DNA of 64,000 bases from a virus (Duplodnaviria > Caudoviricetes): positions 32,001 through 96,000 of IMG/VR virus record IMGVR_UViG_2808606549_000001. One strand, given 5' to 3'. Position numbers and translations under genes: made by a program. Below, one piece after another: positions 49,568 to 54,742 of this stretch. Under the pieces are notes generated by a model. The model made no database searches and was not told where the DNA came from. It saw only the letters and a list, made by a program, of their open reading frames with translations. Numbering within the stretch: the first letter of the stretch is position 1; each line of letters starts with the position of its first letter.

Positions 49568-50125
49568 TAGTTAGCATACTTCACTTTATAATTATTTTTG
49601 TGGGGAGGTTCTTCCTCCCCTATTTATCTATGCGTTCAATGACAACCCTTCTATGTATGTTCGAGTTGTCTTCCTGATCGCTGGATAATCCATGTTACCT
49701 TCAAAGCAGTCAATCCAAGCATTCAAGTCGTCCATTTCGCGGATATGCTCTTTCAATAAAATAAATAATTCATCGTCTTCTTGAACGCCAAAACACTCAA
49801 CTAAACCAGCGAAAAACTGAGTAATGCCGCGATCCCAATTATGCAGCAAATAGTCGTAGGTAAACTCACTCATAGATTTTTTCTCCTGGTAGTTGTTGAT
49901 TATTAGTTTTATACTCATTCATCATATAACGGACAGCGGCCATACCCCTAATCCCTTTGGCCTCAAGTTCTTTAACGAACTCTGGCTTGCCGCCCATCTT
50001 GGCATGATGATCAGATGTGAATATTTTTTTGAATATTCCGACTATAATGGACAATTATCTTACATCCCCTTATTGGACATATAAGTTTATTTTAGTCAAG
50101 ACCCATTTAAAGACTTAAGCTTAAA

Positions 50126-50232
50126 TTTACATGTTAGATAACCTGTTATATACTTTGAAAAGGATGAAGAAACGACTTCCGATAAATGAGTGATCCGCCA
50201 AGTTCAACTCATTTGTTAGAGGTTGTTTTTTT
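50126..50232 (+). ncRNA. Candidate small RNA (about 70 nt) with its promoter
   Basis: TTTACA-N17-TATACT (50126-50154), then long imperfect hairpin with CCGCCAA loop and T7 tail; no ORF. Confidence 0.55.
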
Positions 50233-50402
50233 GTATTGATAATTATACATCATCGCCTTCTCCCTTATTTTTTATATAGATAATGATTATATATTATCAA
50301 AATTTTCCTTGAACAATAAGACAGATTTTTTACTAAAAAATCGATATTTACATTATTATTCAGTTATGCAAGTTGTAAGAACATTGTCGAAGCTTGTTGA
50401 AT

Positions 50403-50876
50403 CTAGTTGTATTGCATTTTAAAGATACTTTGTTCAGAAATATCGTTTATTTTCCCTAGTTGTTTGGAGACTATATTTTTGATCGCAGATCTTGTAACGT
50501 CTACCTGCGCTCCATTATCAAAATACACTACATTTTTAAATGAATCGTATTGCTTCATCTTTGTCATGTTTGCTAACAAACCATAATTTAAACACTTAAA
50601 ATTTTCATTGTTTTCTTCAAGGAATTCAACAAGATCATACGGAAAAGATTTAAAGGAAACTTCGCTGCCGATAGTTCTGATTACAATGTTACCAGATTTC
50701 AACTGGCGAACGAAGACAATATTGTTTACAGGTTCAAAAGCAAAACCTTTTTCCTCATTTGGAATAGTAATAAACTCAGAACTTACACTTTGGTAAATGG
50801 AGTTTATAATTTGTGCTTTTTCAGAAGTAGTGAAATTTTGAAATCCTTCTTTGAAGTTCTTTATAAAGTTCTCCAT
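50403..50876 (-). CDS. Stand-alone LytTR-family regulator (no receiver domain)
   Basis: IVFV...IVIRT...L...F..L..G.LANM.K.K.YD....V.F.NG..V.V.R LytTR pattern. Confidence 0.72.
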   Translation of the reverse strand: MENFIKNFKEGFQNFTTSEKAQIINSIYQSVSSEFITIPNEEKGFAFEPVNNIVFVRQLKSGNIVIRTIGSEVSFKSFPYDLVEFLEENNENFKCLNYGLLANMTKMKQYDSFKNVVYFDNGAQVDVTRSAIKNIVSKQLGKINDISEQSIFKMQYN

Positions 50877-50959
50877 TTACGATTCCTCCATTTTAGATTA
50901 ATGTAACGCACCCAATAAATGAGTGCGCTACATACTCTATGTATTCATCGACTTATCAA

Positions 50960-51061
50960 TTACTTAGTCTTTGTGTTAAAGAAAAGCCAAACCTTATCGA
51001 TTACAGCTTCTGGTACGGATTCAACTGCCTTAACTACAACTTTAGAAATAATCTTTTTCAA
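50960..51061 (-). CDS. Unannotated AgrD-like pro-peptide MKKIISKVVVKAVESVPEAVIDKVWLFFNTKTK (33 aa)
   Basis: Translated by hand; TTG start with GGGAGGTG RBS; amphipathic leader, aromatic core, basic tail; lies in the agrB operon. Confidence 0.7.
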   Translation of the reverse strand: MKKIISKVVVKAVESVPEAVIDKVWLFFNTKTK

Positions 51062-51079
51062 AATATTCACCTCCCTTCA

Positions 51080-51739
51080 TTAATTGTATTCTATTTGATC
51101 CCTTTTATGGGACAAATACAGGAATATTATTGACGATACAATGGTTACAATTGTTGCAACTATCATTAGCGATATCGACAAGTATATGTAGAAACTTATA
51201 CAGACCAGTCCCAAAATAAGTATAATGGCGATTGTCAAGTAAAGGAAAGCTTTATAGTTTGATTTTCTACTCTTTAAGTTAAACCCAAAACCGCCATTTG
51301 TTAATTTGATATACATTCCTACTGAGATAGCGAGTACCGCGCACAATGTTTGGAATGAATATGTCTTAGTTGAGAATGACTTATTTAGGTCGTCTGGCGA
51401 TAATGCGTCCATTCCAACTCCAATAAGTGAAACTAGCCACTGAACTACAAAGTAGAAAGTAAAGCCACCAATAATCACAATGGTTGACCTTGCTAACGGC
51501 ATCTTGAAAACTTTAACGAACGTAAGAATCAAAGCTGGTACTAAAATCAAAGGCAATGGAACATAGTCGAACATTTTTGCGATTACAAGTAAGTAGGATA
51601 CGAACGTAACTCCGATGATCGATAATAGTATCTCCCACCTATATGATCTGAAATCAATGTTGAAGAAACTGAAGATGAGGACGAAGATTGCTAAATACTC
51701 AAAGCTTGAGAATAACATGTATTCCAAAAAGTTCGCCAT
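51080..51739 (-). CDS. Polytopic membrane protein resembling an AgrC-type sensor module without a kinase domain
   Basis: About 7 TM helices, no HisKA/HATPase domain, translationally adjacent to agrB. Confidence 0.6.
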   Translation of the reverse strand: MANFLEYMLFSSFEYLAIFVLIFSFFNIDFRSYRWEILLSIIGVTFVSYLLVIAKMFDYVPLPLILVPALILTFVKVFKMPLARSTIVIIGGFTFYFVVQWLVSLIGVGMDALSPDDLNKSFSTKTYSFQTLCAVLAISVGMYIKLTNGGFGFNLKSRKSNYKAFLYLTIAIILILGLVCISFYIYLSISLMIVATIVTIVSSIIFLYLSHKRDQIEYN

Positions 51740-51740
51740 C

Positions 51741-52286
51741 TTACATCCTCCATATCCTCATTAACCTTTGGTTACGGTAAATCAAATCAAATGACAGAAT
51801 GAAGAATGTAAGCAGCATGGTGTTAGATAGGAAATATGATAGTATACAGACCGCACATGAAATTATTTTATGTATGTTATTTCCATTATGTTTTGTGTGA
51901 TATGGGCTAAGGAACAGATTAACGATTATGGCGAACAATGTCACTGCTACATAAAAACTTTGAGGTGGATCGTTGTGACTTATCAAGGGATTTACGAGGA
52001 TAGCGCCTGTCGTGACCAAAAGACATGAATCTGGAGTATTAAAGTGATTGCCACCATTCCAAATGCGAATAATCGCAAGCGATATAGTTGATATGATTAC
52101 TTCCTTTAGCACCCCAAAGTAGATCCCTGTGAAAATTAGTATTGGTAATAACAATAAGTAAATTGCTATAACTCCCAATTTCTTTTCCATTCTTAGTATA
52201 TCATTATCTATATCTTCTGAGATGTAGTTTTCTAAATTATTATAAATCCCTTTTGCTATGTATTCGCATAATTTCTGTATTGGCAT
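51741..52286 (-). CDS. agrB: AgrB-family peptide-processing protease
   Basis: IRIWNGGNHFNTPDSC = R..GG.H......C catalytic motif; multi-TM. Confidence 0.85.
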   Translation of the reverse strand: MPIQKLCEYIAKGIYNNLENYISEDIDNDILRMEKKLGVIAIYLLLLPILIFTGIYFGVLKEVIISTISLAIIRIWNGGNHFNTPDSCLLVTTGAILVNPLISHNDPPQSFYVAVTLFAIIVNLFLSPYHTKHNGNNIHKIISCAVCILSYFLSNTMLLTFFILSFDLIYRNQRLMRIWRM

Positions 52287-52326
52287 GTTTCACCTCGTTT
52301 TCCACTTGGCAACTCCTTATGTATGT

Positions 52327-52356
52327 AACTTAGCATATTCGATTTACCAAAGTCAA
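52327..52356 (-). promoter_or_regulatory. Promoter for the agr-like operon
   Basis: TTGACT-N18-TAAGTT with TG extension. Confidence 0.55.
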
Positions 52357-52417
52357 TCCTTTTTAAGATAAATATTCATTATTTACTTTAATATTAAAAA
52401 AAGTCCTAGAAATTTAT

Positions 52418-53389
52418 CTAGGACAGATTATAAACCTCTTTTACTGTATCTAAATTCAAGAACTCTGATCTCAATCGCTGCATGCTTTGATTGTTTGTAA
52501 TATTGAACTTATCAGCAATGACCTTATATTCTTCATCATCTAATCTTCCGGTTTGCTGATACAGTTCTTTTGCAACGAAGAGCATGGCGCTTTCAAGAAT
52601 ATTGGTTGGCGTAAAATTTTCCTCTCCAAGATCATCTTTAATCGTCTTTAATCTTCTATGGACGATTGTGAAATCGGCTTCATCGAATCTGATTGTGTGT
52701 GTCTGGGCGGACCTGATGATATATTGGTTATCAACTAATGCAGCCGTTTCCGACCGAATATCCTTGCTCACATTGCCATTCTTTTTTTCGTAATACAATT
52801 CACGTAATGCTTTTTCACAAAGAGCAATACAACGATCATCAACTGATACTGTACGTGTGGTTCCGTCTTCGTCTGTAACCGTTAATTGGTTCTTATCAGC
52901 ATGGACGTCACTGCGTTTAAGGTTGGTTATCTCAGCGTTCCTAGAGCCTTTTACACCGTTCCAGAGCAGCGACACAATGGCTGCGTCCTGAGCATTAACC
53001 AACTTGTTTAGAATGCTGTTTATCTCACTGTCAGTCCAATACTTTTTAGATGCTACTTTAAATTGTTCCTGCCATGCCTTATCAACACTATCCAATGGAT
53101 TTAAACCTTTTCTATAGCCTCTCTCAATACTCCATTCGATATATTTCGACACATATTTGCAGTTATTCCTGCTAGCATACTCTGTCGTAGGTAAGAACAA
53201 ATAGAACAATCTTCTTAGTTCTTCTCTATTGAAACTATACAGATCCTTACCAAGTTCCTCTTCCATCTTGTAAGATATCTTAAATGTTCTATCTAGAATT
53301 TTCTTTGTTCCTGGACCAAAGCCTGAATCAATATACTCTTTTTTTATCTCTTCGTTGTACCACTTATCTTCATACAAAACATTAGCCAT
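52418..53389 (-). CDS. YopR/MrpR-like master repressor (tyrosine-recombinase fold, catalytically degenerate)
   Basis: YNEEIK..YI, EE.LGKDLYSF, N.QD..I..LL..G..G....EI.NLK; HxxR replaced by TPTNILES. Confidence 0.8.
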   Translation of the reverse strand: MANVLYEDKWYNEEIKKEYIDSGFGPGTKKILDRTFKISYKMEEELGKDLYSFNREELRRLFYLFLPTTEYASRNNCKYVSKYIEWSIERGYRKGLNPLDSVDKAWQEQFKVASKKYWTDSEINSILNKLVNAQDAAIVSLLWNGVKGSRNAEITNLKRSDVHADKNQLTVTDEDGTTRTVSVDDRCIALCEKALRELYYEKKNGNVSKDIRSETAALVDNQYIIRSAQTHTIRFDEADFTIVHRRLKTIKDDLGEENFTPTNILESAMLFVAKELYQQTGRLDDEEYKVIADKFNITNNQSMQRLRSEFLNLDTVKEVYNLS

Positions 53390-53398
53390 CGGTATACC

Positions 53399-54742
53399 TC
53401 ACTTCAACAGTTTGTCAGCTTGTTCTTCAAATAACTTACGAATCTCGCCTTTAACCTTATTGGAGTTAACTTTACCTTGGCCAGCCATCAGATTGTTCAG
53501 TTGAGTACCTTCTTTTTTCTCAAAGTTGATACTGTCAATTACCTTCACAATGTCATCAACTGGGAAGTCTTTTCCGTACTTCTTATAAAGTTTACCAGCA
53601 AGCGCAATAAAACCAACGAACATGTTGTGATGTACAAACCAAGAAGTTTCAATTAACTTGGATTTCTCTTTACCAAATTGATCTTCATAGTTAGCCATAA
53701 AATAACCAAAAAACTTCTTCAGTGCGTCTAGAATATCATAACGATCTTTGGCATTTTGAGGTTCAAATACTGATTCTATTGTATCAGACAAAATGGCAAA
53801 GTTTGTTAACAAATTGAGTTTTTTATCTAGAGCAGTTTTAATTGATATTCTGTTCTTAAACTCGTGAATGTTCATTAAATCTTTTGCAATCTGAGCACCA
53901 ATTGTTTCTGCTTTGTAGTGCTTTACAAGAGTTTTATCAAAGGGATTTACTGTGTTGATCTGGCCTAGTAAGAACTGAGCTTCTTCCAGTGGATAGTGTT
54001 TAATCTGAACACCAATATAACCTTCAATATTAGGTTCTTCCTCAAGTACATTCAGGATCGCAGTAAGTCGATGCATTCCATCAATTAGGTTAATTGTAGT
54101 ACCTTCAAAAATAGTTAACTGTCCATCTTCAAAAGTAATCTTGTCATTACCATCAACAAGGATATTTAACAACAAAGCATCAGGCTTATACTTACCTTCA
54201 ACCATCAACTTAGTAATCGCTTTAACACTCTTCTGTTGAACATCTTCTTTCTCAACAATCTGACCTGTTCTCTTACTTAATCGTTTTTTACTTAATCTTT
54301 GAGTTTGGAAGTTGTAAGTAATTACTCCTGCGTTCCAGAGGGCCGCAATTTCCTGGAAACTAATATATGTGATATAGTCTCTACCTGTCGGAAATTCGGT
54401 CACATGGCGAAGCGTATATGGATATTCAATGGCTTTCTCGTCTTCGTACTTATACTTAGCAGCCGCTTTAACCTGTTTTTGAGTAAAGAATATCGAAGGA
54501 TCAATTTTTACGTTTTCTGTGACCTTATGTAGAGCCACAGTATAAAATGCAATTTCTTCATCAGACAACTGCTGTACTTTCTCTGTGTTTGCAACTAATT
54601 CAACAAATGTTCCTCTAGGTACATTGTGCTCAGTAGCGAGTGTGTCATCAATAGTTCTAATTAGTTCTTTGTTTTGTGCAATTTCAGTTAGAACCTCTGG
54701 AAGAATATCCTGAATAGATCTCGTTTCAATTGCTTCACTCAT
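53399..54742 (-). CDS. YopQ-like DndB/ParB-superfamily protein
   Basis: YNF.TQR and IDGMHRL motifs; immediately upstream of the YopR-like gene as in SPbeta. Confidence 0.75.
   Translation of the reverse strand: MSEAIETRSIQDILPEVLTEIAQNKELIRTIDDTLATEHNVPRGTFVELVANTEKVQQLSDEEIAFYTVALHKVTENVKIDPSIFFTQKQVKAAAKYKYEDEKAIEYPYTLRHVTEFPTGRDYITYISFQEIAALWNAGVITYNFQTQRLSKKRLSKRTGQIVEKEDVQQKSVKAITKLMVEGKYKPDALLLNILVDGNDKITFEDGQLTIFEGTTINLIDGMHRLTAILNVLEEEPNIEGYIGVQIKHYPLEEAQFLLGQINTVNPFDKTLVKHYKAETIGAQIAKDLMNIHEFKNRISIKTALDKKLNLLTNFAILSDTIESVFEPQNAKDRYDILDALKKFFGYFMANYEDQFGKEKSKLIETSWFVHHNMFVGFIALAGKLYKKYGKDFPVDDIVKVIDSINFEKKEGTQLNNLMAGQGKVNSNKVKGEIRKLFEEQADKLLK

Follow-up and report, generated by a model that had tools for sequence, protein, structure and literature searches.

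The window, i.e. the whole 64,000-nucleotide stretch of DNA analysed here, comprises bases 32001-96000 of a linear IMG/VR virus record (127,534 bp, estimated to be 86% complete). It contains a cassette of four genes which encode an AgrB-family peptidase, a membrane protein, a small pro-peptide and a LytTR DNA-binding protein. The cassette is located downstream of a yopQ-like gene and mrpR, the gene of a master repressor homologue, and all of these genes are found on the minus strand in the order yopQ-like gene, mrpR, AgrB, membrane protein, peptide and LytTR (Table 1). All four reading frames of the cassette are intact and each is preceded by a ribosome-binding site. An initial annotation, made from the sequence, had proposed a kinase-less, agr-like peptide signalling operon next to the lysogeny repressor. 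We established the identities of the genes, the folds of their products and the conserved linkage of the four genes; the profile searches and the synteny comparison which that annotation had called for were carried out, the AgrB and LytTR identities hold and the cassette was observed to be conserved in bacterial chromosomes. The locus is most likely a phage-borne copy of a widespread Paenibacillaceae peptide-signalling module that descends from or parallels agr.

Table 1. The cassette and its flanking features in the window (aa, amino acids; ORF, open reading frame)
Feature	Position	Strand	Remarks
yopQ-like gene (DndB/DGQHR family), first of the yopQ-mrpR pair	53399-54742	-	Pfam DndB 46 bits, cut-off 29.1
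MrpR/YopR-type master repressor homologue, tyrosine-recombinase fold	52418-53389	-	MrpR_N_CB 83 bits, MrpR_C_cat 65 bits, cut-offs 27
Intrinsic-terminator-like hairpin and T-run	52393-52424	-	8-bp stem, 6-nt loop, TTTTTTT; overlaps the mrpR stop codon
Promoter-like block ahead of agrB	52327-52356	-	TTGACT at 52351-52356, 18 nt, TAAGTT; TGGTAAAT motif at 52342-52349
AgrB-family membrane peptidase, 181 aa	51741-52286	-	Pfam PF04647 51.1 bits, cut-off 23
Seven-helix membrane protein, stand-alone family, candidate peptide sensor, 219 aa	51080-51739	-	Start overlaps the AgrB stop
33-aa pro-peptide MKKIISKVVVKAVESVPEAVIDKVWLFFNTKTK, TTG start	50960-51061	-	ORF of 36 aa from GTG at 51070
Receiver-less LytTR DNA-binding protein, 157 aa	50403-50876	-	Helices in residues 2-31, LytTR beta fold, C-terminal helices
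Non-coding spacer, 484 bp	49919-50402	.	Between the cassette and the next conserved phage gene (49628-49918)

The four proteins of the cassette

The initial annotation had described the AgrB motif as intact and our alignments agree with this. R74, H81 and C88 were found to be invariant in an alignment of 16 homologues, and in a second alignment of 14 homologues, three of which are from cultured phages, P128 is invariant as well. The protein is a peptidase with the catalytic His and Cys of canonical agr, and we take H81 and C88 to be equivalent to the catalytic pair of Staphylococcus aureus AgrB. In the group with short-tailed peptides, the AgrB loop after P128 is shorter and is without the QTRIPxKY motif of other AgrBs, which may accompany the loss of the long peptide tail. 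No close relatives of the window AgrB were found in the phage collection (DNA and tblastn searches) or in IMG/VR, and a word-indexed search of 5.8 billion proteins returned only the AgrB itself.

The membrane protein did not match any Pfam family at cut-off and no kinase family. Its AlphaFold2 model (pLDDT 91, pTM 0.87) consists of seven long helices and the chain ends about 10 residues past helix 7. A phmmer search of 1.84 billion representatives gave 93 matches at E<=1e-3, of which 36 were at E<=1e-10, and all of them are 115-240 aa in length. The early description of a protein with about seven membrane passes and no kinase domain is therefore correct, and this 219-aa protein is different from AgrC, in which a polytopic sensor is joined to an HPK10 histidine kinase. 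The family profile matched no protein of 416 aa or more, which is weak evidence against longer fused forms. Residues F10, S11, E14, F26, S48, Q130 and F151, an NGGFGF motif and a C-terminal KRDxxE[FY] motif are conserved in the family. By the positive-inside rule, the N-terminus is predicted to be outside while the NGGFGF loop and the C-terminal motif would be cytoplasmic. An identity as a CPBP/Abi-type protease was rejected because there is no family match and no conserved His.

A structure search of the ESM Atlas, in which both sides of the comparison are predicted models, gave ten rows, six of which align approximately residues 1-219 of the membrane protein to the N-terminal part of Bacillota signalling proteins of 387-537 aa with TM scores of 0.67-0.78. 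Four of the clusters carry PF14501 (HATPase_c_5, AgrC/ComD type) and contain kinases of 387-452 aa (TM 0.69-0.78 by query). A sequence search of the PDB with the membrane protein gave no match. Since no sequence link to kinases was observed, we use the term AgrC-sensor-like for a structural resemblance and not for proven homology.

A GGAGG motif is located 8 nt ahead of the TTG codon at 51061 and the likely product of the small ORF is therefore the 33-aa peptide. There is no Cys in this peptide, its single Ser is located in the leader and its C-terminal end is ...DKVWLFFNTKTK. In canonical AgrD, cleavage takes place five residues after a Cys or Ser and an acidic PxxP tail follows; neither this Cys/Ser nor the tail is found here. 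A small ORF was observed at the equivalent position in seven related loci (L006, L007, L008, L009, L016, L018 and L019; L and G numbers are our labels for loci and genomes), and the peptides of these loci have the core K-[VILF]-[WF]-[LIF]-[FL]. Together with the window peptide they form a group of eight in which a signal-peptide-like or amphipathic leader is followed by an invariant Lys, then by a stretch of four to five hydrophobic residues that includes W/F and F, and lastly by a polar tail of 3-7 residues, with no conserved Cys/Ser and no PxxP tail. In other cassettes with the gene order of the window, the equivalent position is occupied by a canonical Ser/Cys AgrD, as in L022 (...VSASAWFINKQEVPEELK), L046 (...TTACVSIFHEPEMPLELQK) and L041 (...STSCIGPLYDFESPKE), and the window peptide is therefore considered to be the AgrD equivalent. 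The 33-aa pro-peptide of the initial annotation is thus supported by its start site and by its recurrence, but it is not a canonical AgrD.

The LytTR protein of the window scored 18.8 bits against Pfam PF04397, which is under the cut-off of 22.6. A profile of 27 family members, however, matched the LytTR domain of AgrA in the PDB (4xqj, 3bs1) at E 1.3e-8 and ComE at 1.8e-4, and 24 of the 27 members matched Pfam LytTR at E<=0.01. The AlphaFold2 model (pLDDT 92, pTM 0.80) shows two N-terminal helices, a beta-rich core and C-terminal helices, and Foldseek aligned it to the AgrA LytTR domain 4xqj_A with E 1.4e-7, a root mean square deviation of 2.6 Å and a TM score of 0.81 by target. Because the 31 N-terminal residues form two helices only, there is no receiver domain and the protein is different from AgrA in this respect, as the initial annotation had stated. 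We also noticed that a direct repeat of 14 nt, with a spacing of 15 nt (CTCCATTTACGATT / CTCCATTTTAGATT), spans the start of LytTR at 50871-50899. On the coding strand this repeat contains two ATGGAG motifs, the first of which opens a 4-codon mini-ORF whose GGAGG is the ribosome-binding site of LytTR.

Distribution in Paenibacillaceae and in phages

A search with the family alignment found four Paenibacillaceae genomes with the gene order of the window and a small peptide ORF at the equivalent place. When a sample of 401 Paenibacillaceae genomes was searched with a profile, 256 of these contained the membrane gene, some in several copies (6 at most). We compared 34 loci, i.e. the window, L006, L007, L009 and the 30 best membrane-gene matches. 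AgrB adjoins the membrane gene in 32 of the 34 (the exceptions are L018 and L019) and LytTR was observed within the fetched flank in 31, where the exceptions L034, L041 and L043 have flanks of only 1.5 kb. All four genes are found together in 30 of the loci. Further AgrB genes of the host genomes also belong to the kinase-less family, and this membrane family is the usual partner of AgrB in Paenibacillaceae.

Two gene orders were observed. In the AgrB-first order, to which the window belongs, AgrB is followed by the membrane protein, the peptide and a LytTR of 153-186 aa with an N-terminal extension. In the membrane-first order, which is common and chromosomal, the membrane protein is followed by AgrB, the peptide and a LytTR of 120-150 aa. 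The peptides of membrane-first loci are ordinary AgrD, for example ...IVSTASLLWVHQPKVPNELLNK or ...VSTACWWAVYRPEVPAELKK, with a Ser or Cys and four further residues ahead of an xPxxPxEL tail. A small ORF is present in all of the 24 membrane-first loci listed and it is AgrD-like in 23 of them.

Several loci depart from these arrangements. The two loci without an adjoining AgrB (L018 in G034 and L019 in G214) contain close relatives of the membrane protein, Lys-type peptides and a long LytTR, and unrelated small ORFs are found upstream. In a genome with six copies, one paralogue of the membrane gene (G201:C16:128149-128805) contains five in-frame stops (one TGA and four TAA) and is therefore considered to be decaying. 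A scan of viral contigs with the family alignment gave one locus, L049, and a corresponding scan of metagenome contigs gave no confirmed relative. L049:4001-5139, which is on an IMG/VR contig of 55.9 kb, encodes an AgrD-like peptide of the Ser type and a 118-aa LytTR in addition to the membrane protein, with no AgrB ORF in the 1.2 kb upstream. This set may be a listener plus signal which relies on the AgrB of the host.

Cultured phages were found to contain the cassette as well. A chromosomal AgrB query matched the Brevibacillus phages Abouo, Davies and Emery and the Paenibacillus larvae phages Harrison and Paisley, and the AgrB of the cultured-phage cassettes scored 68 bits. The window membrane protein gave no match to phages by tblastn at E<=1, so the link to cultured phages is made only through the chromosomal AgrB query and the family profile. 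Abouo and Harrison encode a membrane protein, AgrB, a 42-aa peptide and a LytTR gene annotated as a peptidase, and the membrane protein of Abouo was matched to the family profile by hhalign with a probability of 99.2% (E 5.5e-20). The annotated peptidases, gp47 of Abouo (L082:4166-4534) and gp41 of Harrison (L083:4148-4504), scored 29.4 and 29.1 bits as LytTR, over the Pfam cut-off of 22.6, which indicates that the response-regulator-like gene of phage agr cassettes had been overlooked. In the temperate phages Abouo, Emery and Harrison the four cassette genes are near integrase and regulator genes; the cassette of Abouo is located between the integrase and transcriptional regulators and that of Harrison is about 0.6 kb from the integrase. 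In Emery, two consecutive membrane-protein genes of about 220 aa each (gp53 and gp54, L090:125-1526) were observed ahead of AgrB, while the other phages have one. The module is thus phage-encoded, as the initial annotation had proposed, but it is not special to the phage of the window.

In the peptides of three cultured phages, the second Pro is preceded at a distance of nine residues by a Lys (KFGLG|SPEIPEEL, KVTIG|SPVVPKEL and KVFLG|SQPLPKEL), in the same register as the ring Ser of the chromosomal ...TASPFIY|RPEIPEEL. A ring closed by this Lys is a reasonable hypothesis for these peptides, although a linear peptide with a receptor-contacting Lys would fit equally well. On a lactam or isopeptide in AgrD, only synthetic analogues and S-to-N rearranged homodetic peptides turned up in the literature consulted, which was available in part.

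Parts of the module have been described before. In its passages on Abouo, Davies and Emery, which were then called Paenibacillus phages, the study of Hargreaves et al. 2014 (PMC3901668) reports AgrB, a putative AgrD and membrane proteins without a HATPase_C domain, and no response regulator was seen there. Later phage-genome papers, in the sections available, mention the accessory gene regulator once each. The available sections of Paenibacillus polymyxa studies treat agrBD(E) or canonical agrABCD (PMC12180512, PMC13700820). Our literature search gave no paper describing the kinase-less family and no functional study, only canonical systems and passing remarks; the supplementary tables of PMC12180512 and PMC6193735 may list such loci. 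The parts of the module and their presence in phages are therefore known in outline, while the extent of the family, the LytTR partner, the repeated coupling to mrpR and the Lys-type peptides appear to be undescribed.

Association with mrpR and the lysogeny region

The genes upstream of the cassette were confirmed to be yopQ/yopR-like. The repressor homologue has both MrpR domains and the yopQ-like gene is located ahead of it, which is the arrangement of an SPbeta-like lysogeny module; the yopQ-like protein also scored 43 bits against NCBIfam DGQHR, which is under the cut-off. The best match of the window MrpR in the phage collection is from Alicyclobacillus phage KKP_3916 (35% identity), and homologues of 42-55% identity were found in Paenibacillaceae genomes. 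The large ORFs of the record fit an SPbeta-like phage, including PIN-PhoH and GmrSD_N, and none of them is AimR-like. Two further genes of the record were noticed outside the window. One encodes an 847-aa protein (L003:9080-11623) of the eukaryotic-type RNA-dependent RNA polymerase family PF05183 (54 bits), which presumably recalls the YonO polymerase of SPbeta, and the other a 365-aa tubulin/FtsZ-type GTPase (L002:2020-3117).

MrpR homologues are present in 37 of the 401 genomes, at 40 places. The coordinates of the MrpR and membrane-gene matches were compared across the search tables, and in nine of the 37 genomes (G003, G055, G114, G394, G301, G348, G283, G293 and G093) the membrane gene was observed on the strand of mrpR and no more than 2.4 kb downstream of it. 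The background density of the membrane gene is about 1 copy per 5-6 Mb by our own estimate, and the link between the cassette and mrpR is non-random. The AgrB-first cassette is found behind mrpR in the window, L007, L008, L016 and L022, and the membrane-first cassette in L072; both orders occur behind MrpR proteins that are 28-55% identical to that of the window. In G283, MrpR is followed by the membrane protein, AgrB and then a Ser-type AgrD. The cassette of L022 is directly behind the MrpR homologue, and that of L046 is behind a 334-aa ORF which is MrpR-like by eye only. Ahead of the cassette of L007 (Paenibacillus pini), the reading frame of the MrpR homologue is broken into two overlapping ORFs of 164 aa (L007:3361-4333), which is either a frameshift or a sequencing error in the draft genome.

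The hairpin at the end of mrpR is the sole terminator-like site in 49900-52500, where 0.9 would be expected by chance, and an equivalent hairpin was observed 3' of mrpR in L007, L008, L016 and L052. A promoter ahead of agrB had been proposed. A homologous block, TTGACT-N17/18-TGnTAnnT, is indeed conserved and is easier to recognise in L007, L008 and L052, the last of which does not have the cassette, but the window version is weaker, was not among the sites listed by a consensus promoter scan and can be called promoter-like only. The combination of terminator and promoter-like block after mrpR is common to L007, L008 and the cassette-less L052. As this block is also found in a relative without the cassette, the cassette appears to be the first unit behind the promoter, inserted before the next phage genes. 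In L052 and L053, two cassette-less relatives from among the three closest MrpR homologues, the homologue of the ORF at 49628-49918 is directly 3' of mrpR. The spacer between this ORF and the cassette in the window contains a 25-nt imperfect inverted repeat at 50167-50231 (76% complementary, 15-nt loop) with no T-run after it on the coding strand.

The initial annotation had noted that the window contains no AimR, and this extends to the full record: the AimR model NF038310 gave no match at E<=1 in the 127,534 bp, while the Bacillus subtilis control was above the cut-off. AimR was also above the cut-off in none of the five host genomes that hold mrpR-linked prophage cassettes.

Possible function and relation to known systems

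The leading interpretation is that the cassette is a kinase-less peptide-sensing module with a LytTR output, which is used by an arbitrium-less phage as an input to the MrpR switch. We hold this interpretation with middling confidence, as it could equally turn out to be right or wrong. In the proposed mechanism, AgrB would use His81 and Cys88 to cut the short C-terminal tail off the 33-aa pro-peptide and would aid its release. After removal of the leader, the hydrophobic core (KVWLF or KVWLFF) would build up outside the cell and bind to the seven-helix membrane protein, which is predicted to be shaped like the sensor domain of an AgrC-type protein. The membrane protein would then control the receiver-less LytTR through direct contact, by holding or releasing it in the manner of the membrane inhibitors of streptococcal LytTR systems, and the freed or captured LytTR would alter transcription. 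What we infer from the gene set and the models thus covers the processing and secretion of the peptide, its binding, the contact between the membrane protein and LytTR, the targets of LytTR and the effect on lysogeny. Since the cassette is located behind the post-mrpR promoter and no arbitrium receptor was found, the module is most likely a density or kin signal for the lysis-lysogeny switch, and a role of the cassette in this decision is plausible.

A number of observations weigh against this interpretation. The membrane gene is elsewhere or absent in 27 of the 37 genomes with MrpR (G395 is in neither class), and no cassette adjoins mrpR in the three loci with the closest MrpR homologues (53-55% identity), which makes the cassette accessory. 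Most members of the membrane family are chromosomal and one genome can contain as many as 6 of them, which fits cargo for host physiology. The window peptide has neither the Cys/Ser nor the PxxP tail that is used by AgrB and may therefore not be a substrate of this enzyme. The resemblance of the membrane protein to kinase sensors rests on one structure search of predicted models: hhalign of the membrane family against the first 220 aa of an HPK10 kinase, which was taken from a host genome and is not an agr-linked AgrC, gave a probability of 0.6%, and Foldseek of the model against the PDB gave nothing at E<=0.001 (best E 0.89). Direct repeats of the LytTR type were not found in 52287-52420 or 49919-50402 by a search with a 6-nt exact seed, which degenerate repeats would escape. 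The stretch is in no listed RNA data set, and two DNA runs of one sample, which may be its source, contain it. Lastly, with the record 86% complete, an arbitrium locus may lie in the missing part.

In an alternative interpretation, the cassette is lysogenic-conversion cargo, i.e. a host-type quorum sensing system that alters the lysogen or interferes with host paralogues and gives no input to lysis-lysogeny. This is possible, though we think it unlikely on balance. The family is overwhelmingly chromosomal and often found in 2-6 copies, the absence of the cassette from the closest MrpR relatives suggests that it is dispensable for the switch, and the cassettes of cultured phages near the integrase and accessory genes are in the usual place for cargo. 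Host genomes with the prophage also hold chromosomal copies that would be able to cross-talk. However, the repeated placement exactly downstream of mrpR, in two gene orders and in MrpR clades of 28-55% identity, is poorly explained by cargo unless this position is a permissive hot spot, and the cassette follows a conserved promoter by which, in relatives, the next phage genes are driven. The peptides in phage context have also diverged from the Ser/Cys type of the host, which looks like insulation from host signals.

Two other explanations concern the proteins themselves. The membrane protein could be a factor for maturation, export or self-protection, in which case the peptide would be antimicrobial or interfering and LytTR would only regulate production; we regard this as improbable. 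The core (KVWLFF) is very hydrophobic and aromatic in a peptide without canonical AgrD features, no sequence link of the membrane protein to sensor kinases was found and staphylococci have a protein of comparable role in MroQ, a leader-removing membrane protease to which the available text of PMC9388083 assigns a part in the maturation of the autoinducing peptide. The membrane protein, on the other hand, matches no CPBP/Abi or other Pfam family and has no conserved His, it resembles the sensor halves of HATPase_c_5 kinases in predicted fold over its full length, and the partner peptides in membrane-first loci are ordinary AgrD-type signals. It is very improbable that the phage acquired a host agr-like locus of which the cassette is only an inactive or decaying remnant. 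The LytTR score under the Pfam cut-off, the AgrB without close relatives in the 5.8-billion-protein search and the atypical peptide would agree with decay, but the four frames are intact with ribosome-binding sites and the catalytic and family-conserved residues are kept. Furthermore, the divergent peptide type and the gene set recur in seven other loci at 27-46% protein identity, and this recurrence indicates purifying selection.

The leading interpretation can be taken further with the Lys-type peptides. The phages of Paenibacillus and Brevibacillus might use a phosphorylation-free channel made of agr parts in place of arbitrium, with a Lys macrolactam closed by AgrB as the pheromone, although we consider this doubtful. 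In place of a thiolactone or lactone, the ring would join the side chain of the invariant Lys to the carboxyl group of the C-terminus. Such lactam chemistry, if true, would give the phage a stable signal, orthogonal to the many Ser/Cys-type peptides of the host, and the Lys-type AgrD peptides do suggest an undescribed cyclisation chemistry. More generally, a four-gene module with neither kinase nor receiver is present in about two thirds of the sampled Paenibacillaceae genomes, and the mechanism by which its kinase-less sensor acts on LytTR would join the fields of agr and of LytTR regulatory systems and give the latter a ligand. The placement behind mrpR in arbitrium-less SPbeta-like prophages provides a testable candidate for a second, independent form of phage peptide communication.

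The cassette is similar to staphylococcal-type agr in the His/Cys pair of AgrB, in a small pro-peptide whose membrane-targeting N-terminal leader precedes a hydrophobic core and a polar tail, in the LytTR fold of AgrA and in the predicted shape of the membrane protein, which is that of an AgrC-type sensor domain. It is different in its gene order (B, sensor, peptide, LytTR) and in the peptide, which has a Lys at the position of the ring Cys/Ser and a 6-residue tail without PxxP. As the histidine kinase part and the receiver domain are absent, no phosphotransfer is possible, unlike in agr.

The streptococcal LytTR regulatory systems HdrRM and BrsRM also have a stand-alone LytTR regulator gene that adjoins a membrane-protein gene, with no kinase. 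According to the sections of PMC6193735 available, which mention neither AgrB nor phages, the regulator gene precedes the membrane gene in these systems, the membrane proteins are of different families, such as DUF2154 for HdrM, and there is no gene for AgrB or a peptide. In the window the LytTR gene is last, the membrane protein has seven helices and no Pfam family, and a dedicated peptide and peptidase are included. The hybrid of agr and a LytTR regulatory system suggested by the initial annotation is therefore supported in its parts, i.e. AgrB, a kinase-less membrane protein, a peptide and a receiver-less LytTR, but it is outside the described families of the latter.

Among phage systems, agr3 of the Clostridioides difficile phage phiCDHM1 likewise combines AgrB and AgrD with a membrane partner. 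In the part of PMC3901668 that treats it, this partner is a real AgrC kinase (HATPase_c) and there is no response regulator, whereas the window shows the reverse, with LytTR and no kinase. The cultured phages have the same four-gene module and the Lys at the ring position of the peptide. They are, however, 44-58 kb in size with an integrase and CI-type lysogeny modules, and have the membrane-first order and peptides that keep the PxxPxEL tail, while the window phage is SPbeta-like, about 130 kb or more in size, has an MrpR repressor and encodes proteins that are too distant for tblastn. Arbitrium (AimR/AimP/AimX) is similar in being a secreted-peptide system of phages in the SPbeta-like lysogeny region, with peptides that diversify between related phages. 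Its TPR receptor is intracellular and acts after import of the peptide, whereas in the window phage, which has no AimR, sensing would take place at the membrane.

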